A stretch of DNA of 64,000 nt from Pristiophorus japonicus (Eukaryota). Shown piece by piece: positions 5,212-64,000 of the stretch. Numbering within the stretch: the stretch's first letter is position 1; every line of letters starts with the position of its first letter. The notes under the pieces are model-generated. The model was not told the origin of the DNA, searched no databases, and worked only from the letters and a program-made list of their open reading frames with translations. A program made the position numbers and the translations under genes. The stretch covers positions 123,132,001 through 123,196,000 of the forward strand of contig NC_091992.1 in assembly GCF_044704955.1 (NCBI RefSeq), read 5' to 3'.

Positions 5212-8200
5212 TGAGTTCGGGGCGTTGGTGAGGCCTATAAAGGCCCAGCGGCAGAGGAGAGGCGGTGGTAGTCGGAGAGGCGGGAGTTCGGGGCGTTGGT
5301 GAGACCTATAAAGGCGGAGCTAGTGCAGCTGCAGCAGGGAGAGAAAGCAAAAAAGAAGTAAAAAGAAATCGAAAGGTGACGTCACAGCCAAGGGGGTAAG
5401 TGATTGGTAAGTAGCTTTTCTTTTTTCTTTTCTTTATCAGTAATTAACCTTTAGCATTGTTGTTGCCAAATTAAGTTTATCTAGGGTTAAGTCATGGCAG
5501 GACAGCTCGGACGCGTGTTATGCTCCTCCTGTACTATGTGGAAAGTCAGGGACGCTTCCAGTGTCCCTGACGACTACATGTGCGGGAAGTGCATCCGCCT
5601 CCAGCTCCTGATGGACCGCATTGCGGCACTGGAGCTGCAGGTCGATGAACTCTGGAGCATCCACGATGCTGAGAATGACGTGAATAGCACCTTTAGCGAG
5701 TTGGTCTTACCGCAGGTAAAGGGTACACAGCCAGATAGTAAATGGGTGAGCAACAGGAAGAGCAGTGCAAGGAAGGTAGTGCAGGGGTCCCCTGTGGTCA
5801 TCCCCCTGCAAAACAGATGCACCGCTTTGGGTACTGTTGAGAGGGATGACGCATCAAGGGGAAGCAGCAGCAGCCAAGTTCATGGCACCTTGGGTGGCTC
5901 TGCTGCACAGGAGGGCAGGAAAAAGAGTGGGAGAGCTGTAGTGATAGGGGATTTGATTGTAAGGGGAATACATAGGCGTTTCTGCGGGCGCAACCGAAAC
6001 TCCAGGATGGTATGTTGCTTCCCCGGTGCAAGGGTCAAGGATGTCTCGGAGCGGGTGCAGGACATTCTGAAAAGGGAGAGTGAACAGCCAGTTGTCGTGG
6101 TGCATATAGGTACCAACAATATAGGTAAAAAACGGGATGAGGTCCTACAAGACGAATTTAGGGAGCTAGGAGCTAAATTAAAAAGTAGCACCTCAAAAGT
6201 AGTAATCTCAGGATTGCTACCAGTGTCACGTGCTAGTCAGAGTAGGAATCGCAGGATAGCTCAGATGAATACGTGGCTTGAGGAGTGGTGCAAAAGGGAG
6301 GGATTCAAATTCCTGGGACATTGGAACCGGTTCTGGGGGAGGTGGGACCAGTACAAACCAGACGGTCTGCACCTGGGCAGGACCGGAACCAATGTCCTGG
6401 GGGAGTGTTTGCTAGTGCTGTTGGAGAGGAGTTAAACTAACATGGCAGGGGGATGGGAACCTATGCAGGGAGACAGAGGGAAATAAAATGGAGGCAGAAG
6501 CAAAAGATAGAAAGGAGAATAGTAAAAGTGGAGGGCAGAGAAACCCAAGGTAAAAAACAAAAAGGGACACATATAGCAAAATTCTAAAGGGGCAAAGTGT
6601 GCTAAAAAGACAAGCCTGAAGGCTCTTTGCCTTAATGCGAGGAGTATTCGGAATAAGGTGGACGAATTAACTGCGCAGATAGCAGTTCACGGATATGATG
6701 TAATTGGCATCACGGAGACATAGCTCCAGGGTGACCAAGGCTGGGAACTCAACATCCATGGGTATTCAACATTTAGGAAGGATAGGCAGAGAGGAAAAGG
6801 AGGCGGGGTGGCATTGCTGGTTAAAGAGGAAATTAATGCAATAATAAGGAGGGACATTAGCCTGGATGACGTGGAATCAGTATGGGTGGAGCTGCAGAAT
6901 ACCAAAGGGCAGAAAACGCTAGTGGGAGTTGTATACAGACCACCAAACAGTAGTAGTGAGGTTGGGGACAGCATCAAACAAGAAATAAGGGATGTGTGCA
7001 ATAAAGGTACAGCAGTTATCATGGGGGACTTTAATCTACATATTGATTGGGCTAACCTAACTGGTAGTAATGCGGTGGAGGAGGATTTCCTGGAGTGTAT
7101 TAGGGATGGTTTTCTAGACCAATATTTCGAGGAACCAACTAGAGAGCTGGCCATCCTAGACTGGGTGATGTGTAATGAGAAGAGGCTAATTAGCAATCTT
7201 GTTGTGCGAGGCCCATTGGGGAAGTGTGACCATAATATGGTAGAATTCTTTATTAAGATGGAGAGTGACACAATTAATTCGGAAACTAGGGTCCTGAACT
7301 TAAGGAAAGGTAACTTCGACGGTATGAGGGGTGAATTAGCTAGAATAGACTGGCAAAGGATACTTAAAGGGTTGACGGTGGATAAGCAATGGCAAACATT
7401 TAAAGATCACATAGATGAACTTCAGCAATTGTACATTCCTGCCTGGAGTAAAAATAAAACGGGGAAGGTGGCTCAACCGTGGCTAACAAGGGAAATTAAG
7501 GATAGTGTTAAAGCCAAGGAAGAGGCATATAAATTGGCTAGAAAAAGCAACAAACCTGAGGACTGGGAGAAATTTAGAATTCAACAGAGGAGGACTAAGG
7601 GTTTAATTAAGAGGGGGAAAATGGAGTACGAGAGGAAGCTTGCAGGGAACATAAAAAATGACTGCAAAAGCTTCTATAAATATGTGAAGAGAAAAAGATT
7701 AGTGAAGACAAACGTAGGTCCCTTGCAGTCGGATTCAGGTGAATTTATAATGGGGAACAAAGAAATGGCAGACCAATTGAACAAATATTTTGGTTCCGTC
7801 TTCACGAAGGAAGACACAAATAACCTTCTGAATGTACTAGGGGACAGAGGGTCTAGTGAGAAGGAGGAACTGAAGGATATCCTTATTAGGCAGGAAATTG
7901 TGTTAGGGAAATTGATGCCATTGAAGGCCGATAAATCCCCGGGGCCTGATAGTCTGCATCCCAGAGTACCTAAGGAAGTGGCCCTAGAAATAGTGGATGC
8001 ATTGGTGATCATTTTCCAACAGTCTATCGACTCTGGATCAGTTCCTATAGACTGGAGGGTAGCTAATGTAACACCACTTTTTAAAAAAAGGAGGGAGAGA
8101 GAAGACGGGTAATTATAGACCGGTAAGCCTGACATCAGTTGTGGGGAAAATGTTGGAATCAATCATTAAGGATGAAATAGCAGCACATTTGGAAAACAGT

Positions 8201-9500
8201 GACAGGATCGGTCCATGTCAACATGGATTTCTGAAAGGGAAATTATGTTTGACGAATCTTCTGGAATTTTTTGAGGATGTCACTAGCAGAGTGGTCAAGG
8301 GAGAACCAGTGGATGTGGTGTATTTGGATTTTCAAAAGGCTTTTGACAAGGTCCCGCACAAGAGATTGGTGTGCAAAATCAAAGCGCATGGTATTGGGGG
8401 TAATGTACTGACGAGAATAGAGAACTGGTTGGCAGACAGGAAGCAGAGAGTCGGGATAAAAGGGTCCTTTTCAGAATGGCAGGCAGTGACGAGTGGAGTG
8501 CCGCAGGGCTCAGTGCTGGGACCCCAGCTCTTTACAATATATATTAACAATTTATATGAAGGAATTGAGTGTAATATCTCCAATTTTGCAGATGACACTA
8601 AACTGGATGGCGGTGTGAGTTGTGAGGAGGACGCTAAGAGGCTGCAGGGTGACTTGGACAGGTTAGGTGAGTGGGCAAGTGCATGGCAGATGCAGTATAA
8701 TGTGAATAAATGTGAGGTTATCCATTTTGGGGGCAAAAACACGAAGGCAGAATATTATCTGAATGGCAGCCAATTAGGAAAAGGGGAGGTGCAACGAGAC
8801 CTGGGTGTCATGATTCATCAGTCATTGAAAGTTGGCATGCAGGTACAGCAGGCGGTGAAGAAGGCAAATGATATGTTAGCCTTCATAGCTAGGCGATTTG
8901 AGTATAGGAGCAGGGAGGTCTTACTGCAGTTGTACAGTTGAGGCCTCACCTCAAAAATTGTGTTCAGTTTTGGTCTCCTAATCTGAGGAAGGACATTCTT
9001 GCTATTGAGGGAGTGCAGTGAAGGTTCATCAGACTGATTCCAGGGATGGCTGGACTGTCATATGAGGAGAGACTGGATAAACTGTGCCTTTATTCACTGG
9101 AGTTTAGAAGGATGAGAGGGGATCTCATAAAAACGTATAAGATTCTGACGGGACTGGACTGGTTAGATGCGGGAAGAATGTTCCCGATGTTGGGGAAGTC
9201 CAGAACCAGGGGACATAGTCTTAGGATAAGAGGTAGGCCATTTGGGACAGAGATGAGGAGAAACTTCTTCACTCAGAGAGTTGTTAACCTGTGGAATTCC
9301 CTGCTGCAGAGAGTTGTTGATGCCAGTTCATTGGATATATTCAAGAGGGAGTTAGATATGGCCCTTACGGCTAAGGGGATCAAGGGGTATGGAAAGAAAG
9401 CAGGAAAGGGGTATTGAGGGAATGATCAGCCTGATCTTATTGGTTCGAAGGGCCAAATGGCCTACTCCTGCACCTATTTTCTATGTTTCTATTTTTCTAC
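5212..9500 (+). mobile_element. Near full-length but mutated CR1 LINE (5' UTR, ORF1, ORF2, 3' tail), antisense to TMEM235 intron 1
   Basis: ORF1 at 5494-6440. ORF2 has APE (LNARSIRNK, YRPP, GDFN, CDH) and RT (QGSVLGP, FADDTK) motifs, with stops and frameshifts near 6721, 8090 and 8940. (TTCTATGT)n tail. It appears to split an older CR1 fragment (gagtttagaagactgag before, gagaggtg after). Confidence 0.95.
5494..6440 (+). pseudogene. CR1 ORF1: zinc finger/leucine zipper plus SGNH/GDSL esterase domain
   Basis: CxxC...CxxC, heptad leucines, then VVIGDLIVRG (GDS to GDL, catalytic Ser lost), HIGTNN and DGLH. A frameshift near the C-terminus relative to the copy at 49359-49787. Confidence 0.9.
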
Positions 9501-14275: not shown

Positions 14276-15491
14276 TGGTGCTGTGTGATTGTTAAACTTT
14301 GCGAATACTGCTACAACTACAGTGAGAGTGAAGGTGAACCCAGGACCGTGTGAGAGGAGGAAGAAAAGCTGCAGTTGTGAACCTAGTGGATGAACTGAAT
14401 TGTTAAACCCTTGTTGACAGCACAAATAGATACAATACTCCTCTTTCCTCATCCGCCCTGCCCCGCCAGTCGAAGACGTTGTACTATCCCTCGCTGTTTC
14501 AGTGGAATCCAGTTGCTATTCAGCAGTAGCTGAGAACCCAAAACTTTACCATTCAAGTTGTTTTACTGCTTGCCCCCAAGCGGCTGCCCGGGGGGTCATT
14601 TTTACTCTCTCTTAAACCCGTAACAATGTGTCGCCGGTGTAAAAATAATTCTGAAGAATTATTATGGCAGCGTTGCTGCGCTGTGTGAGAGGGCAGAGCG
14701 AGGTGAATGTTTTCACAATTCTTACAGTAATGTACAGGTGGATAGAAACCGGCTCAGTATACTGGCGCCTTTCAGATGTGTATTTGCTTTGTGCGGATCC
14801 TGGCAGAGCCGTTCACCATTATTTCTGTCAGCGATTGTACAATTCTGCTCTTGATCTTGAGTAATTGCCGAGGTTCGAGATTAACACGGCGCTGGTTTTA
14901 CCTTGAATTCTGTTTACATTTCTGTTCAGGAATATGTTCGCGTGTGTCTGCGGTTGCTCGTGTTTGTAAATACAAGTTGTGTGTTCATGCTGTAGAAAAG
15001 GACATTTTGATGCAAAAAGGGGAACTGTTTGAATTTCCATGTTTGAAGCTAGATGATCGTTACCCCGCAATACCTGTTGTATATATCTTTGAACCCCACA
15101 CTAATTTCGGAAGACTACCGACTATTTTTTCTTCCCTTGTATCAATAGCAATGATTCCATTGCAAGTACATGGAAGAAATGGCATGACAAGTCATCACCA
15201 ACTACAATGAGAAAGTGCGGCACCATATGAAGCAACTGATGGGAAGGTTTAAGGGGAAACCAATACTGAAAAACATTATATTCGACCTGTCCAAAATCTT
15301 ACAAAAGGTAAAGTGCGGGTGCGATTGCGGTGACACATGATGAAACGAACAGGAGTCGCTATAACCGATTACGATAGAGTAAAAAAACAGGATTAACCCC
15401 GAAACCGTCCTCAATAGTTTATAACTTAAAATGTCTCATAATTAAGTTACAATCACTATGAAATATCGCAACTGATCAAGAATCGCTGTAC

Positions 15492-15672
15492 CTTCGCAAA
15501 TTCTCCAGAGCCCAGAATGGGAGTTTAAATCTTCCCAGTCCTCGCCGTAGTTATATCTGGAGTTTGAAACGTCGATAATGTACCAATAATCCGTGCCGAT
15601 CGCTACCGCTAGAAACACGAAACTTAAGAGTCCAATTAACCCAGCGGTCACGCAGACCGTTCCAAGAGTCAT
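15492..15672 (-). CDS. TMEM235: Transmembrane protein 235 (PMP22/claudin superfamily), coding exon 1; later exons not found in window
   Basis: MTLGTVCVTAGLIGLLSFVFLAVAIGTDYWYIID...NSHSGLWRICEG: TM1, TDYWY and HSGLWRxCEG signature of TMEM114/235. Phase-1 GT donor at 15491-15490. CpG-rich. Tandem downstream of BIRC5 as in human, which favours TMEM235 over TMEM114. Confidence 0.88.
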
Positions 15673-16149
15673 CTTATTACAAATATCGCTCGCTATGTCA
15701 GGCTGATCATGGTATTGGGTTGAATCCTCCCCTTTCTGCGTGTTCCTGTCTGCGGACGGTGCTCGATTAACTGTGCGCGATTTCCTCGAACTCAATGTCC
15801 TTTCCAATCCCAAAATTCCAGTTACAAAAGATACAAAGAGATGGGAAACAAGAGCCTCCACAAACGTACATTTAAAGGGGTGGGGGAAGCTGTAGACAAT
15901 TGTTAGTGGTTGGATGTTATCTCTCTCCCACCCCGAGCTTCATTTACAGGTATTTGGGCTCTTGCATTATTGTTACTCTTTATCGGGGTCACGTTCAATT
16001 TCCAAGGCTTTGGCAATCAGTTAAAATAACAAACTAAAATCCTTGGTTTTTACAGCAGGTACCTGGCAGGTGGTTAGCCCACAGCTAACTCCTGGCTGCA
16101 AACGGGTCACATGCCATGTTCTCAGTGACCATAATACATTGACTGTACC

Positions 16150-25130: not shown

Positions 25131-25449
25131 ATGTTGAAAGCATTGGATTCCAAGTATCTTTAAGAAACCTTTTCACATTGCTGGTCATCTTCACATTCTG
25201 ATTTCTCAGCCCTCTGAACTATAAATTCAATGTATTCATTGCTGAAGACACCTTTGTCATTTGTGATGGTGAGCTTCTTTTCATTTCCCAGTGTTCTTAT
25301 CCACCGCAGCACATTTGCACCAATATCAAAAAGCATTTCAATTTGGGGCACATCCCATGTAGCAAGTGGAATTTCAGACAGCTTAAACTTGCTCAGCAAG
25401 TTGTTATCCATGGTCATGGCTTTTTCACCCTCATAAACCTGAATCGGCA
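25131..25449 (-). pseudogene. HSP70 pseudogene fragment 2 (substrate-binding beta domain)
   Basis: IQVYEGEKAMTMDNNLLSKF...VPQIEMLFDIGAN...KLTITNDKG...CEKVS*..LESNAFN. Confidence 0.93.
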
Positions 25450-25815
25450 CATAAGAACATAAGAAATAGGAGCAGGAGTAGGCCATACGGCCCTTCGTGC
25501 CTGCTCCGCCATTTAATACGATCATGGCCGATCCGATCATGGACTCAGGTCCACTTCCCTGCCCAATCCCCATAACCAGTTATCGTTTAAGAAACTATCT
25601 ATTTCTGTCTAAAATTTATTCAATGTCCCAGCTTCCATAGCTCTGAGGCAGTAAATTCCACAGATTTACAACCCTCAGAAGAAATTTCTCATCTCAGTTA
25701 TAAATGGGCGGCCCCTTATTCTAAGATTATGCCCTCTAGTTCTAGTCTCCCATCGATGGAAACATCTTTTCTGCATCCACCTTGTCAAGCCCCCTCATAA
25801 TCTTATACGTTTCAA
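25450..25815 (-). mobile_element. Old CR1 3' fragment (5' remnant at ~30533-30572), inserted in the HSP70 pseudogene
   Basis: CR1 tail and terminal ORF sequence that resumes beyond the nested plus-strand CR1. Confidence 0.75.
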
Positions 25816-41755: not shown

Positions 41756-42608
41756 TAATACTAATAATTTATCTCATTTGCTGCTGTGCAGAATTTGGGA
41801 GTAACTACATTTCAAAACAATTCATTGGCTGTAGAGTGCTTGGATACATCCCAAAATATACAAATGTAAGCCTTTTTCCCTCTTCAGGGATATAAACAGT
41901 ATTTAAGTCCAACAGACGTTAGTAATAAAGCCAAGAACAGCTGAGCAGATTGCCCGAAAGAAAGCACCTCCAGTATTGATGGAATGCTGCACAGCTGACA
42001 CAAAAAGGCAGCATAACACTTCACTACCAATAGTTATAGCAGTTAATCTTTTCATTAGTTTTTTTTTAAATAGTTCTTTGCTAAATTACAATGTCCTTGC
42101 ATGCTATTTCTCTTATCGTAAACAGAAACTATCCCTCCAAAAAGTTCACAATAGACTCATCAATTTGAAAAGTACTTTGAAGACACTGACTTGGGGCTGT
42201 TACAGGTACGACCATTTGGAAATGAAATATTTTGGAACAACTTATACCAAACCTCCATTCTTCCTATCCCATCCCACCATCACTTCTCCCTCTCTATCTA
42301 TCTCCTTCCCTTCTACATCCCACCCCTATTTCCCAACCCCTCTATCCTACCCCAAGAAGGAGTAAACACGTTCTGCACAGGAAACTGCTGGGGGGTGATC
42401 CTGGCAGTTCATACAGAGGCGGTATTAGAAAGTATTACTAAAGAAGCAGGTTGGTGAGCAGTGCCCACCATTTGGCCGGCAGAAAGTATACCGCACAACC
42501 GCGGCGCGCCTTTAACAAGCCCAGTGATTGTAGAAAGGCGGCCGCGGCACCGTCCCGGCGGGGACACGGGCAGAGCACAGCCGGCCCGCCCGCCGAGCGA
42601 GCACTCAC

Positions 42609-42719
42609 ATTCTCCGGGGTGCACATACAGTCGTTGACGAAAGGCCAGTTGATGAACGTGTTCAGGCGCTCCTGGAAGTAATAGTATTTGCGGTCCTGCT
42701 GCTTCAGGAAAACCTCCAT
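42609..42719 (-). CDS. BIRC5: Survivin coding exon 1 (111 nt)
   Basis: Strong Kozak ggcgcaATGg; MEVFLKQQDRKYYYFQERLNTFINWPFVNDCMCTPEN; gtgagt donor. Spliced exons give a continuous 143-aa ORF. Confidence 0.97.
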
Positions 42720-42960
42720 TGCGCCGGCTGTCGCGGGGGGGTGGCGCTGGCTCCCCAGCATTCGGCGCGCGCGCGCATTCAACCGCCAACAGATTCAAAC
42801 AACCGACCATCATCCGCGCGCTCGCCTTGCCCTGCGCTTATTGGCGGACGGCACCGTTGCGTCACAGAGACAGTCACGTGGTGAGACAAAGGCCGGGCTC
42901 GAAGATCACCAGGTGAGGACCCGCGCAACGGCAGGAGGCCATTCAGCCCATCGAATCAGC
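42720..42960 (-). promoter_or_regulatory. BIRC5 CpG-island promoter with cell-cycle motifs
   Basis: CHR TTTGAA (42794-42799), adjacent TTGGCGG (42783-42789), CCAAT (42840-42844), TGACGCA (42858-42864), E-box GTCACGTG (42873-42880). CpG-rich from ~42450 to 42960. Confidence 0.75.
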
Positions 42961-47100: not shown

Positions 47101-50100
47101 AGGATCCATTTATCCCGACTCTCTGCTTTCTGTTCGCCAGCCAATTCTCTATCCATGCTAATACATTTCCTCTGACTCCGCGTACCTTTATCTTCTGCAG
47201 TAACCTTTTGTGTGGCACCTTATCGAATGCCTTTTGGAAATCTAAATACACCACATCCATCGGTACACCTCTAACCACCATGCTCGTTATATCCTCAAAG
47301 AATTCCAGTAAGTTAGTTAAACATGATTTCCCCTTCATGAATCCATGCTGCGTCTGCTTGATTGCACTATTCCTATCTAGATGTCCCGCTATTTCTTCCT
47401 TAATGATAGTTTCAAGCATTTTCCCCACTACAGATGTTAAACTAACCGGCCTATAGTTACCTGCCTTTTGCCTGCCCCCTTTTTTAAACAGAGGCGTTAC
47501 ATTAGCTGCTCTCCAATCCGCTGGTACCTCCCCAGAGTCCAGAGAATTTTGGTAGATTAGAACAAATGCATCTGCTATAACTTCCGCCATCTCTTTTAAT
47601 ACCCTGGGATGCATTTCATCAGGACCAGGGGACTTGTCTACCTTCAATCCCATTAGTCTGTCCAGCACTACCTCCCTAGTGATAGTGATCATCTCAAGGT
47701 CCTCCCTTCCCACATTCCTATGTCCAGAAATTTTTGGCATGGTTTTTGTGTCTTCCACTGTGAAGACGGAAGCAAAATAATTGTTTAAGGTCTCAGCCAT
47801 TTCCACATTTCCCATTATTAAATCCCCCTTTTCATCTTCTAAGGGACCAACATTTAATTTAGTCACTCTTTTCCGTTTTATATATCTGTAAAAGCTTTTA
47901 CTATCTGTTTTTATGTTTTGCGCAAGTTTACCTTCGTAATCTATCTTCCCTTTCTTTATTGCTTTTTTAGTCATTCTTTGCTGTTGCTTAAAATCTTCCC
48001 AATCCTCTAGTTTCCCACTAACCTTGGCCACCTTATACGCATTGGTCTTTGATTTGATACTTTCCTTTATTTCCTTGGTTATCCACGGCTGGTTATCTCT
48101 TCTCTTGCCGCCCTTCTTTTTCACTGGAATATATTTTTGTTGTGCATTATGAAAGAGCTCCTTAAAAGTCCTCCACTGTTCCTCAATTGTGCCACCGTTT
48201 AGTCTGTGTTCCCAGTCGACTTTAGCTAACTCTGCCCTCATCCCACTGTTGTCCCCTTTGTTTAAGCTTAGTACGCTCGTTTGAGACACTACTTCCTCAC
48301 CCTCAATCTGTATTACAATTCAACCATACTGTGATCACTCATTCTGAGAGGATCTTTTACTAGGAGATCGTTTATTATTCCTGTCTCATTACACAGGACC
48401 AGATCTAAGATAGCTCGCTCCCTTGTAGGTTCTGTAACATACTGTTCTAAGAAACAATCCCGTATGCATTCTATGAATTCCTCCTCCAGGCTACCCCGTG
48501 CGATTTGATTTGACCAATCAATATGTATTTTAAAATCCCCCGTTCCTTTTTCACATGCCTCCATTATTCCCTTGATTATTGCCTGCCCCACCGTGAAGCT
48601 ATTATTTGGGGGCCTATAAACTACGCCGACCAGTGACTTTTTCCCCTTACTATCTCTAATCTCCACCCACAATGATTCAACATTTTGTTCATTAGAGCCA
48701 ATATCATCTCTCACAACTGCCCTGATATCATCCTTTATTAACAGAGCTACCACCTCCTTTCCCTTCTTGTCTATCCTTCCGAATTGTCAGATACCCCTGT
48801 ATGTCTAATTCCCAGTCTTGGCCACCCTGCAACCACGTTTCTGTAATGGCCACCAAATCATACCCATTTGTAATGATTTGTGCCGTCAACTCATTTACTT
48901 TATTTCGAATGCTGCGTGCGTTTAGGTAGAGTGTTTTAATACAGTTTTTAAACCATGATTTTTAGTTTTGGCCCCTCCTGCAGCCCCTTTATATTCATAC
49001 ATATTGTCCCTTCCTATCACATTGTGATTTACACTTACCCCAGTGCTACTCTGCTCTGTTGCCTCCTGCCATTTGCATTCTTTCTTGGGGTCCTGTTCAT
49101 CTGCGCTCTCACCCACTCTAACTAGCTCAGAGCCGTCTCCTGGGTTCCAAGTACTCCTCGCATTGAGGCACTGAGCTTTCAGGCTTGCCTTTTTATTACA
49201 CTTTGACCCTTTAGAATTTTGCTGTACATTGGCCCTTTTTGTTTTTTGCCTTGGGTTTCTCTGCCCTCCACTTTTACTCATCTCCTTTCTGCCTTTTGCT
49301 TCTGTCTCCATTTTGTTTCCCTCTGTCTCCCTGCATTGGTTCCCATCCCCATGCCATATTAGTTTAACTCCTTCCCAACAGCACTAGCAAACACTCCCCC
49401 TAGGACATTGGTTCCGGTCCTGCCCAGGTGCAGACCGTCCGGTTTGTACTGGTCCCACCTCCCCCAGAACCGGTTCCAATGCCCCAGGAATTTGAATCCC
49501 TCCCTGCTGCACCACTGCTCAAGCCACGTATTCATCTGCGCTATCCTGCGATTCCTACTCTGACTAGCACGTGGCACTGGTAGCAATCCCGAGATTACTA
49601 CTTTTGAGGTCCTACTTTTTAATTTAGCTCCTCGCTCCTTAAATTCATCACGTAGGACCTCATCCCTTTTTTTACCTATGTCGTTGGTACTATATGCACC
49701 ACGATAACTGGCTGTTCTCCCTCCCTTTTCAGAATGTCCTGCACCCCCTCCAAGACATCCTTGACCCTTGCACCAGGGAGGCAACATACCATCCTGGAGT
49801 CTCGGTTGCGGCCGCAGAAACGCCTATCTATTCCCCTTACAATTGAATCCCCTATCACTATCGCTCTCCCACTCTTTTTCCTGCCTTCCTGTGCAACAGA
49901 GCCAGCCACGGTGCCATGAACTTGGCTGCTGCTGCCCTCCCTGATGAGTCATCCCCCTCAACAGTACTCAAAGCAGTGTATCTGTTTGGCAGGCGGCTGA
50001 CCGCAGGGGACCCCTGCACTACCTTCCTTGCACTGCTCTTCCTGCTGGTCTTCCATTCCCTAGCTGGCTGTGGACCCTTCACCTGCGGTAAGACCAACTC

Positions 50101-60320: not shown

Positions 60321-63300
60321 ATAGAAACATAGAAAACAGGTGCAGGATTAGGCCATTCGGCCCTTCTAGCCTGCACCGCCATTCAATGAGTTCATGGCTG
60401 AACATTCAACTTCAGTACCCCATTCCTGCTTTCTCGCCATACCCCTTGATCCCCCTAGTAGTAAGGACCTCATCTAACTCCTTTTTGAATATATTTAGTG
60501 AATTGGCCTCAACAACTTTCTGTGGTAGAGAATTCCACAGGTTCACCACTCTCTGGGTGAAGAAGTTCCTCCGCATCTCGGTCCTAAATGGCTTACCCCT
60601 TATCCTTAGACTGTGACCTCTGGTTCTGGACTTCCCCAACATTGGGAACATTCTTCCTGCATCTAACCTGTCTAACCCCGTCAGAATTTTAAATGTTTCT
60701 ATGAGGTCCCCTCTCATTCTTCTGAACACCAGTGAATACAAGCCCAGTTGATCCAGTCTTTCTTGATAGGTCAGTCCCGCCATCCCGGGAATCAGTCTGG
60801 TGAACCTTCGCTGCACTCCCTCAATAGCAAGAATGTCCTTCCTCAGGTTAGGAGACCAAAACTGTACACAATACTCCAGGTGTGGCCTCACCAATGCCCT
60901 GTACAACTGTAGCAACACCTCCCTGCCCCTGTACTCAAATCCCCTTGCTATGAAGGCCAACATGCCATTTGCTTTCTTAACCGCCTGCTGCACCTGCATG
61001 CCAACCTTCAATGACTGATGTACCATGACACCCAGGTCTCTTTGCACCTCCCCTTTTCCTAATCTGTCACCATTCAGATAATAGTCTGTCTCTCTGTTTT
61101 TACCACCAAAGTGGATAACCTCACATTTATCCACATTATACTTCATCTGCCATGCATTTGCCCACTCACCTAACCTATCCAAGTCGCTCTGCAGCCTCAC
61201 AGCATCCTCCTCGCAGCTCACACTGCCACCCAACTTAGTGTCATCTGCAAATTTGGAGATACTACATTTAATCCCCTCATCTAAATCATTAATGTACAGT
61301 GTAAACAGCTGGGGCCCCAGCACAGAACCTTGCGGTACCCCACTAGTCACTGCCTGCCATTCTGAAAAGTACCCATTTACTCCTACTCTCTGCTTCCTGT
61401 CTGACAACCAGTTCTCAATCCATGTCAATACACTACCCCCAATCCCATGTGCTCTAACTTTGCACATCAATCTCTTGTGTGGGACCTTGTCGAACGCCTT
61501 CTGAAAGTCCAAATATACCACATCAACTGGTTCTCCCTTATCCACTCTACTGGAAACATCCTCAAAAAATTCCAGAAGATTTGTCAAGCATGATTTCCCT
61601 TTCACAAATTCATACTGACTTGGACCTATCATGTCACCTCTTTCCAAATGCACTGCTATGACATCCTTAATAATTGATTCCATCATTTTACCCACTACCG
61701 ATGTCAGGCTGACCGGTCTATAATTCCCTGTTTTCTCTCTCCCTCCTTTTTTAAAAAGTGGGGTTACATTGGCTACCCTCCACTCCATAGGAACTGATCC
61801 AGAGTCAATGGAATGTTGGAAAATGACTGTCAACGCATCCACTATTTCCAAGGCCACCTCCTTAAGTACTCTGGGATGCAGTCCATCAGGCCCTGGGGAT
61901 TTATCGGCCTTCAATCCCATCAATTTCCCCAACACAATTTCCCGGCTAATAAGGATTTCCCTCAGTTCCTCCTCCTTACTAGACCCCCGACCCCTTTTAT
62001 AACCGGAAGGTTGTTCGTGTCCTCCCTCGTGAATACCGAACCAAAGTACTTGTTCAATTGGTCCGCCATTTCTTTGTTCCCCATTATGACTTCCCCTGAT
62101 TCTGACTGCAGGGGACCTACGTTTGTCTTTACTAACCTTTTTCTCTTTACATATCTATGGAAACTTTTGCAATCCGTCTTAATGTTCCCTGCAAGCTTCT
62201 TCTCATACTCCATTTTCCCTGCCCTAATCAAACCCTTTGTCCTCCTCTGCTGAGTTCTAAATTTCTCCCAGTCCCCAGGTTCGCTGCTATTTCTGGCCAA
62301 TTTGTATGCCACTTCCTTGGCTTTAATACTATCCCTGATTTCCCTTGATAGCCACGGTTGAGCCACCTTCCCTTTTTTATTTTTATGCCAGACAGGAATG
62401 TACAATTGTTGTAGTTCATCCATGCGGTCTCTAAATGTCTGCCATTGCCCATCCACAGTCAACCCCTTAAGTATCATTCGCCAATCCATCCCAGCCAATT
62501 CACGCCTCATACCTTCAAAGTTAGCCTTCTTTAAGTTCTGGACCATGGTCTCTGAATTAACTGTTTCATTCTCCATCCCAATGCAGAATTCCACCATATT
62601 ATGGTCACTCTTCCCCAAGGGGCCTCGCACAACGAGATTGCTAATTAATCCTCTCTCATTACATAACACCCAGTCTAAGATGGCCTCCCCCCTAGTTGGT
62701 TCCTCGACATATTGGTCTAAAAAACCATCCCTTATGCACTCCAGGAAATCCTCCTCCACCGTATTGCTTCCAGTTTGGTTAGCCCAATCTATGTGCATAT
62801 TAAAGTCACCCATTATAACTGCTGCACCTTTATTGCACGCACCCCTAATTTCATGTTTGATGCCCTCCCCAACATCACTATTACTGTTTGGAGGTCTGTA
62901 CACAACTCCCACTAACGTTTTTTGCCCTTTGGTGTTCTGCAGCTCTACCCATATAGATTCCACGTCATCCAAGCTAATGTCCTTCCTAACTATTGCCTTA
63001 ATCTCCTCCTTAACCAGCAATGCTACCCCACCTCCTTTTCCTCTATCCTTCCTGAATGTTGAATACCCCTGGATGTTGAGTTCCCAGCCCTGATCATCCT
63101 GGAGCCACGTCTCCGTAATCCCAATCACATCATATTTGTTAACATCTATTTGCACAGTTAATTCATCCACCTTATTGCGGATACTCCTTGCATTAAGACA
63201 CAAAGCCTTTAGGCTTGTTTTTTTAACACCCTCTGTCCTTTTAGAATTTTGCTATACAATGGCCCTTTTTGTTCTTTGCCTTGGGTTTCTCTGCCCTCCA

Positions 63301-63415
63301 CTTTTCCTCATCTCCTTTCTGTCTTTTGTTTTTGCCTCCTTTTTGTTTCCCTCTATCTCCCTGCATTGGTTCCCATCCCCCTGCCATATTAGTTTAACTC
63401 CTCCCCAACAGCACT
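60321..63415 (-). mobile_element. Young CR1 truncated just 5' of the ORF1 stop; ORF2 nearly intact
   Basis: 413-aa APE ORF (61962-63203) and 507-aa RT ORF (60412-61935) separated by one frameshift; tail present. Confidence 0.95.
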
Positions 63416-64000
63416 CCCCCCCTCCAGTTCTTGGCACAAGTCCATATTACAAGTTCAGATGGTCCAGAGCCCTTCGCTCCCTGGTTGACCGTCTCAGTAC
63501 AATCCCAGTGCTTTCCGAGTCTCTCACGACTTGGGGCTGGGTGTTGACCACAGTGGGTTCTTCTGATGGCTGGATGTGGGTTGGTTGGTTGTCTAAGCTC
63601 GCGGTGTCTTCTTCCAACTGTTCCGGTTCATCATTGTGTCTTAGCTTGATTTTATCAATGTGTTTCCTGCACATCTGCCCATTCTTGAGCTTCACCATAT
63701 ACACCCTGTTTCCCTCCTTATCCATAACATTACCTGGGAGCCACTTGGGCCCTTGACCATGGTTAAGTACATACACTGGGTCATTTACAAATATGTCGTG
63801 CGACACTGCGGCGTGGTCGTGATACCACTGCTGGCATTGACGTCGGGTTTTGACATGATCGTTAAGGTCAGGATGGACTAGCGAGAGCCTGGTTTTGAGG
63901 TCTCTCTTCTTCAATAGTTCCGCAGGCGGGACCACGGTGAGCGTGTGTGGCCTTGTCCTGTAACTGAGCAGTATGCATGACAAGCGTGTCTGCAAGGAAT
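63416..64000 (-). mobile_element. Gypsy (Mag/K02A2.6-like) integrase C-terminus and polypurine tract
   Basis: LLSYRTRPHTLT..PAELL, GPKWLPG, RKHIDKIK, LRRSTRERR; PPT ggagggggga. Confidence 0.88.

Follow-up and report, generated by a model that had tools for sequence, protein, structure and literature searches.

A candidate -1 frameshift signal at the ORF1/ORF2 junction of esterase-type CR1 LINEs, shared by deeply diverged lineages

INTRODUCTION

The described elements closest to the one analysed here are the canonical CR1s of vertebrates with a type IV ORF1 (zf/lz plus esterase), as presented in PMC4120745 and PMC13343379; they have the same esterase ORF1, an ORF2 with an APE endonuclease and an RT, and a microsatellite tail. 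The main texts of these two papers contain neither 'frameshift' nor 'overlap', and no slip site at the junction is described in them. For LINEs in general, passages in the reviews PMC3894237 and PMC3708506 call the translation of ORF2 an open question, with reinitiation as the default answer and the accepted model (PMC2881922, PMC3894237, PMC3708506). L1 and SART1 likewise have a bicistronic LINE RNA and low-level ORF2; they make a separate ORF2p and, unlike the CR1 junction, need neither a slippery heptamer nor a fixed phase. Since ORF2 of mammalian L1 is reported in a review to start by AUG-independent initiation (PMC5009743), the lack of an AUG alone is no proof of slippage.

A -1 frameshift is stated to be required for ORF2 in the Dictyostelium elements TRE5-A and TRE3-A, which are APE-type non-LTR retrotransposons (PMC5911963); this stated requirement is what they have in common with the mechanism considered here for CR1, and clade, ORF1 and host are different. 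The ORF1a/1b junction of arteriviruses and coronaviruses and retroviral gag-pol likewise use an X_XXY_YYZ heptamer to connect the polymerase frame with the ORF that precedes it (PMC5009743). The same review, from 2016, counts U_UUA_AAC, G_GGA_AAC and A_AAA_AAC among the most shifty heptamers, gives the G_UU(A) form as the site of equine arteritis virus, and states that G-quadruplexes were not known to serve as frameshift stimulators in nature. In the portions of the literature covered by our searches we found no description of CR1/LINE frameshifting, and an earlier remark in the classic CR1 papers is possible. For the LINE that prevails in sharks, reptiles and birds, a conserved slip site would offer a different answer, and one that can be tested directly.

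RESULTS AND DISCUSSION

Junction copies in the window

The DNA analysed (hereafter the window) is a stretch of 64,000 nt from Pristiophorus japonicus (NC_091992.1 of GCF_044704955.1, positions 123,132,001-123,196,000, forward strand; genome 5.9 Gb). The stretch flagged in the original prediction is, by its domain content, the junction between ORF1 and ORF2 in a CR1 LINE of the esterase type. ORF1 (5491..6435, +) has a Cys-rich zinc-finger N-terminus followed by an SGNH esterase domain, found by profile (PF13472, E 5e-12) as well as by structure match (PDB 4C1B, E 4e-33); its last residues are out of frame. On translation, the remains of ORF2 (APE endonuclease and RT) lie in three pieces at 6724..9417 (+), and in an intact relative (L209) the -1 frame carries PF03372 (APE endonuclease) and then PF00078 (RT). 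The genome copies L202 and L209 both have an open ORF1 and an open -1 frame of 995 codons. Esterase-type CR1s end in a stem-loop and short tandem repeats without poly(A), and the 3' tail of the window element (9448..9500, +) likewise consists of a stem-loop region and TTTCTATG-type repeats.

As originally predicted, three copies read GTTAAAC TAA across the junction: direct reading of the window located heptamer plus stop at 6431-6440 (+), 49368-49359 (-) and 63398-63389 (-). That ORF2 lies in the -1 frame relative to ORF1 at this point was borne out by translation. The motif KTTAAACTAR occurs four times in the window versus 0.70 expected, a number reached in 0 of 100 shuffles, and this count is not independent evidence because the three junction copies are homologous; the fourth match (47436, +) is antisense, within an ORF2.

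In the flagged copy the heptamer G_TTA_AAC (6431..6437, +) is directly followed by the native ORF1 stop TAA (6438..6440, +). Because 1 nt has been lost from the G-run 6399-6403, heptamer and ORF1 do not share a phase here (in most relatives they do), and ORF1 ends in the shifted frame with ...LLERS* at 6433-35. The basic linker read in the -1 frame to LNARS, the first endonuclease motif (6437..6640, +), is broken twice, by TAA at 6551-53 and by another 1-nt loss, in agreement with the initial caveat that this copy has other lesions. It is a dead relic of the CR1 junction layout, and because it is broken the slip signal has to be judged on its relatives. Among the 30 scored copies nearest to it (L001-L030), retrieved by a search biased to the query's own lesion, 12 have the same 1-nt loss before the heptamer and six other copies have the TAG linker codon described below; these shared lesions possibly reflect non-autonomous sublineages or mutation hotspots.

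For the second copy (49359..49368, -; chimeric family B linker), the prediction of an intact ORF1 end and a -1 frame open to LNARS held in part. Heptamer and TAA are in phase with the end of ORF1, but only the last ~110 codons of ORF1 keep the native frame. The -1 frame does reach LNARS, but the chimeric linker has two of these motifs and it is the first that is reached; ahead of the second, from which the endonuclease follows, the frame is broken. In the third copy (63389..63398, -; 5' cut at ~63415) just ~20 nt of ORF1 precede the heptamer. The TAG linker codon is indeed present in window copies (in the third at 63252-54), but it is a minority lesion, with TAG in 6 versus CAG in 93 of the 101 family A/B copies scored; at position 63254, CAG is read in >99% of the contig depth from three sequencing runs.

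Families and relatives of the element

Among named ORF1 homologues found in a protein search, one of a sawshark comes closest (83%), followed by those of rays and skates (47-54%). In an ORF1 tree, which was made by a quick method with midpoint rooting and serves only to describe groups, the window family falls together with proteins of turtle and snake, and the ZfL2-1-like clade is separate from it. Family B is recombinant: family A supplies ORF1, junction and the linker as far as LNARS, and a family-C-like linker and ORF2 follow in frame. In most intact copies its second LNARS lies 468 nt past the heptamer (window 48922-49383, -; L061-L090), the -1 phase being kept over this 468-nt chimeric linker, and at least 40 matches have 97-100% identity.

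Some side observations concern these relatives. The locus of L209 (G000:C7:246493300-246502500) holds two near-identical CR1 copies ~2.9 kb apart on the same strand, the second of which has the fully open ORF2. Within ORF1 a motif L-x-N-R-(Y/F)-x-x-L is found ~630 nt 5' of the junction (window ~5805-5830), at a near-constant distance to the stop in shark, sturgeon-like and bird-type ORF1s. Databases also contain pieces of CR1 ORF1 under unrelated names (P0007, P0040, P0041, P0194), one being called a 'Pseudomonas' hydrolase and others TMEM204 and hydroxyacid oxidase 2 in gene models of rays; such entries likely stem from contamination or mis-joined gene models.

Conservation of the heptamer across lineages

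Copies were collected from the same genome by DNA and protein searches and joined with 43 metagenome loci, 12 of them reaching the junction, whose host taxa are inferred from the similarity of their proteins. The anchor used to find junctions left out the last 8 codons. ORF1 is closed by [GT]TTAAAC plus stop in 161 of 191 junction candidates (28/31, 43/49 and 58/69 in the family A/B sets, 21/30 in family C and 11/12 among the metagenome loci). Because copies of young families are alike throughout, the comparison was made between lineages, of which 11 were left after eight indel-bearing family A copies, split falsely by clustering, had been dropped. All 11 lineages end in TTA AAC, the codon in front of it always ends in G or T and specifies one of five amino acids, and the heptamer keeps its phase across CR1 lineages as X_XXY_YYZ in the ORF1 zero frame.

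Ten of the lineages are 27-76% identical over the 57 codons before the junction, and synonymous sites are largely saturated between lineages. With L122 left out on account of a one-codon insertion, the codons of shared four- and six-fold residues agree in 191 of 529 pairs, and shared Leu codons elsewhere are identical in 43 of 166 pairs (26%), counts that are not independent and allow no simple probability because the lineages share ancestry. The invariant Leu of DGxHL is encoded by five different codons across lineages, and TTA, the rarest Leu codon in the same stretch, accounts for 3 of the 72 other Leu codons there. Free variation of the heptamer at synonymous sites, which would have spoken against a slip signal, is thus not what we found. 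TTA AAC is invariant, against a rate of 26% identical pairs for the other shared Leu codons; the codon comparison therefore indicates that constraint at the heptamer acts on the nucleotides, beyond the coding need.

Protein ends give a wider view of the same site. Among 43 ORF1 homologues 28 end in LN and one in IN, the remaining 14 being truncated, fused or unrelated at the end; named proteins with LN ends are from sharks, rays, sturgeon, turtles and one snake. At 50% identity there were 150 representatives, of which 96 could be scored at the end (LN in 49, QGN in 8 and SKN in 1). LN aside, a slip-compatible final dipeptide is seen in 10 of 47 ends compared to a background of 6.7% (p ~0.001, kinship uncorrected), and the residue before LN is one unable to end in U in 1 of 49 cases, versus 13 and 15 at the next two positions. 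Judged from the protein alone, QGN and SKN ends could be encoded by G_GGA_AAC and A_AAA_AAC. DNA of a QGN-type family was not found in viral contigs; prokaryote genomes gave only bacterial esterases, and a QGN query on the own genome retrieved family A/B in the 30 loci inspected. A clade of eight near the zebrafish ZfL2-1 esterase is without LN-, QGN- or SKN-type ends. Frame-joined database proteins (P0030, P0194, P0090) read ...GFKL or SFKL, which is the -1 reading of TTTAAACTA. Among longer proteins we found no natural full-length ORF1-ORF2 fusion, which is weak evidence, and one partial one (P0194).

Phase and openness of the linker

ORF2 is in the -1 frame across linkers of 96, 108, 141, 150, 195, 204 and 261 nt. 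The first endonuclease motif was located in 165 copies (26 were without location), and its distance from the heptamer is a multiple of three in most of these 165 and 195 nt in 100 of them. In relatives of the flagged copy the linker to LNARS is 195 nt long and usually open, and the majority linker has no fixed -1-frame stop, a feature that would have weakened the prediction. Seven metagenome loci have an intact heptamer and an endonuclease motif that could be placed; in all of them the phase is kept and the frame open. Upstream of the junction, a -1-frame stop is found within 3-15 codons in 14 of 16 representatives and an AUG in that frame in none of the 16, so that ORF2 cannot start before the junction.

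Subfamily C3 reads TTTAAAC followed by TAA or TAG in 23 of 30 copies. Its 68-codon linker is open in 3/3 in-phase copies tested (P 0.013-0.021, by shuffling), and the other frames carry 5-9 stops. The proportion of copies in phase is 15 of 28 in C3 and 12 of 22 in older family C; for the out-of-phase copies we infer slippage in the G-run after insertion. Compared across deeply diverged lineages, heptamer, phase, immediate stop, open -1 linker and downstream G-run are shown to be conserved.

Search for a stimulator

The downstream G-tracts that had been predicted are present, in the flagged copy at 6448-52, 6455-57, 6468-70 and 6478-80. The conserved G-run G5-AT-G3 (6448..6457, +) begins 11 nt past the heptamer and is likely part of the stimulator; the third and fourth GGG tracts (6468..6480, +), which complete a three-tier G4 motif, are kept only in part of family A. 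A four-GGG quadruplex as stimulator, as first proposed, did not survive the comparison: the motif is found in 3/3 window copies and 4/5 family A loci, is absent from subfamily A4, and occurs in 0/4 family C and 0/9 metagenome junctions. We rejected the three-tier G4 as a general stimulator, the motif being limited to part of family A. In the intact copies L202 and L209 it is the sole four-GGG cluster on the sense strand. A first GGG at +8 to +12 nt past the heptamer is found in 21 of 21 junctions examined, and for most of them a two-tier quadruplex could be drawn by eye.

Over the same 21 junctions no conserved downstream hairpin was detected (z -3.6 to +1.3), the downstream folds of the window copies reach only -7 to -8 kcal/mol, and Rfam gave no match at the junction. 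In this respect CR1 differs from the viral sites, as it is without a stable hairpin 5-9 nt downstream and has the G-run at +8 to +12 instead; this spacing is near the 11-14 nt given in a review for the arterivirus -2 and cardiovirus sites (PMC5009743).

Two long-range partners of the G-run were considered. Pairing with the element's 3' tail is possible over 7-8 bp, and 13-65% of shuffles scored as well (shark queries with the tail of their own family); the tail window ranked about fourth among 82-115 windows in most of eight elements, and the pairing had no own-family specificity. Tail pairing is unsupported, shuffles matching its score. In family A, the 'VIPLQ' codons of ORF1 (5799..5809, +) contain an exact 11-nt complement of 6445-6455, ~640 nt upstream, which is kept in most family A copies (p 0.000-0.01, found post hoc); in the 49-kb copy both partners of the pairing are damaged. 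This candidate partner is not general (six-group permutation p 0.12; absent in L121 and L122). The stimulator is probably the G-run 8-12 nt downstream, acting as a two-tier quadruplex, a bound protein's site or a long-range pairing partner, and not a local pseudoknot; it is the weakest step of the frameshift explanation.

Frameshifting and rival explanations

At this junction CR1 ORF1 ends in (G/U)_UUA_AAC plus stop, with ORF2 in the -1 frame, and we consider it likely that a minority of ribosomes slips back one base here and makes an ORF1-ORF2 fusion. G_UUA_AAC is not a triple-identical slip site. A ribosome with UUA in its P site and AAC in its A site would slip by one base, tRNA-Leu and tRNA-Asn moving in tandem from UUA AAC to (G/U)UU AAA, and the product would read ...L-N-L-(I/T)-W.... 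Slipped ribosomes would pass the stop and then read the basic linker, the endonuclease and the RT, whereas most ribosomes would stop and leave ORF1p in excess; a fusion of ~1,310 residues is predicted beside abundant ORF1p. The gag-pol-like fusion proposed at the outset is thus supported in part: slip site, phase and open linker are conserved, but the four-GGG G4 is restricted to part of one family and linker AUGs are common.

These linker AUGs speak for termination-reinitiation as in L1 and SART1, in which ribosomes would restart at an AUG (+2, +17 or +27) or at a non-AUG codon, ORF2p would be a separate protein, and the TTAAAC-stop-G-run would be a termination or re-start signal. The original caveat that linker ATGs allow reinitiation is well founded: an in-frame AUG is present in 94 of 99 phase-intact family A/B copies, at codon +17 only in 32, at +27 only in 30 and at both in 32 (the +17 AUG of the flagged copy is at 6488..6490, +), and subfamilies without one of the two mostly retain the other. 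Moreover, four bird/reptile-type loci have an AUG at codon +2, and L148 has a SART1-like TAATG overlap (UAAUG in the RNA). However, the AUG position varies (+1, +2, +17, +20, +26, +27 or absent), leaving no fixed short distance from the ORF1 stop, whereas the heptamer is constant. In subfamily C3 the first ORF2-frame AUG common to at least 10 of the 29 copies aligned comes 131 codons into the endonuclease (some linker Met occurs in 10 of 28), and in the sturgeon-like L121 the first AUG comes after LNARS; both are thus without a shared AUG before the first endonuclease motif. Reinitiation also requires no fixed -1 phase, no open stretch before the AUG and no X_XXY_YYZ shape. It is a serious rival that we regard as the clearly less likely explanation of this junction; frameshifting and reinitiation could coexist there.

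An incidental constraint, i.e. an esterase that needs a terminal Leu-Asn with codons inherited or set by A-rich bias, would agree with the A-richness of the elements and with the terminal Leu fitting the i+4 hydrophobic pattern of the last helix in the alignment. It does not agree with the rarity of TTA among the Leu codons of the stretch at largely saturated synonymous sites or with the ZfL2-1-like esterases that lack LN, and it leaves phase and open linker unexplained; the lineage codon comparison largely refutes it, and we rate it as very improbable. The probability is slighter still for a splice signal joining ORF2 to an upstream exon, either a branch point (CTAAY) or a 3' splice site (TAG): family A does read CTAAC or CTAAT and the tetrapod-type loci CTAG, but the sequence in family C is CTAAA or CTAAT, TAA instead of AG is found in the shark families, and the surroundings are purine-rich without a pyrimidine tract.

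If frameshifting is the answer, the polymerase would be covalently tied to ORF1p, the ORF1:ORF2 ratio would be set by slippage, and the real start of ORF2p would move; read from its first AUG, CR1 ORF2 loses the first endonuclease motif in some families. Much more tentatively, CR1, which predominates among the LINEs of vertebrates other than mammals, might have made its RT as a retrovirus-style ORF1-ORF2 fusion since before the split of sharks and bony vertebrates. The slip site would be of the coronavirus/arterivirus type, its stimulator would be a G-run (acting as a natural quadruplex, as a motif bound by protein or through long-range pairing) and not a pseudoknot, and related families would have swapped U_UUA_AAC, G_GGA_AAC and A_AAA_AAC.

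Other features of the window

By eye, the ORF at 63447-63998 (-) resembles the end of an LTR-retrotransposon pol, with no Pfam match, and the purine run after it abuts the truncated third CR1 copy. Three further stretches on the minus strand resemble cellular genes: 42438-42794, in a GC-rich island, may be the first exon of a BIR-domain (survivin-like) gene, 15442-15939 may be that of a claudin-like TMEM gene, and 25160-25579, which adjoins a CR1 tail, may be a decayed HSP70-like fragment.
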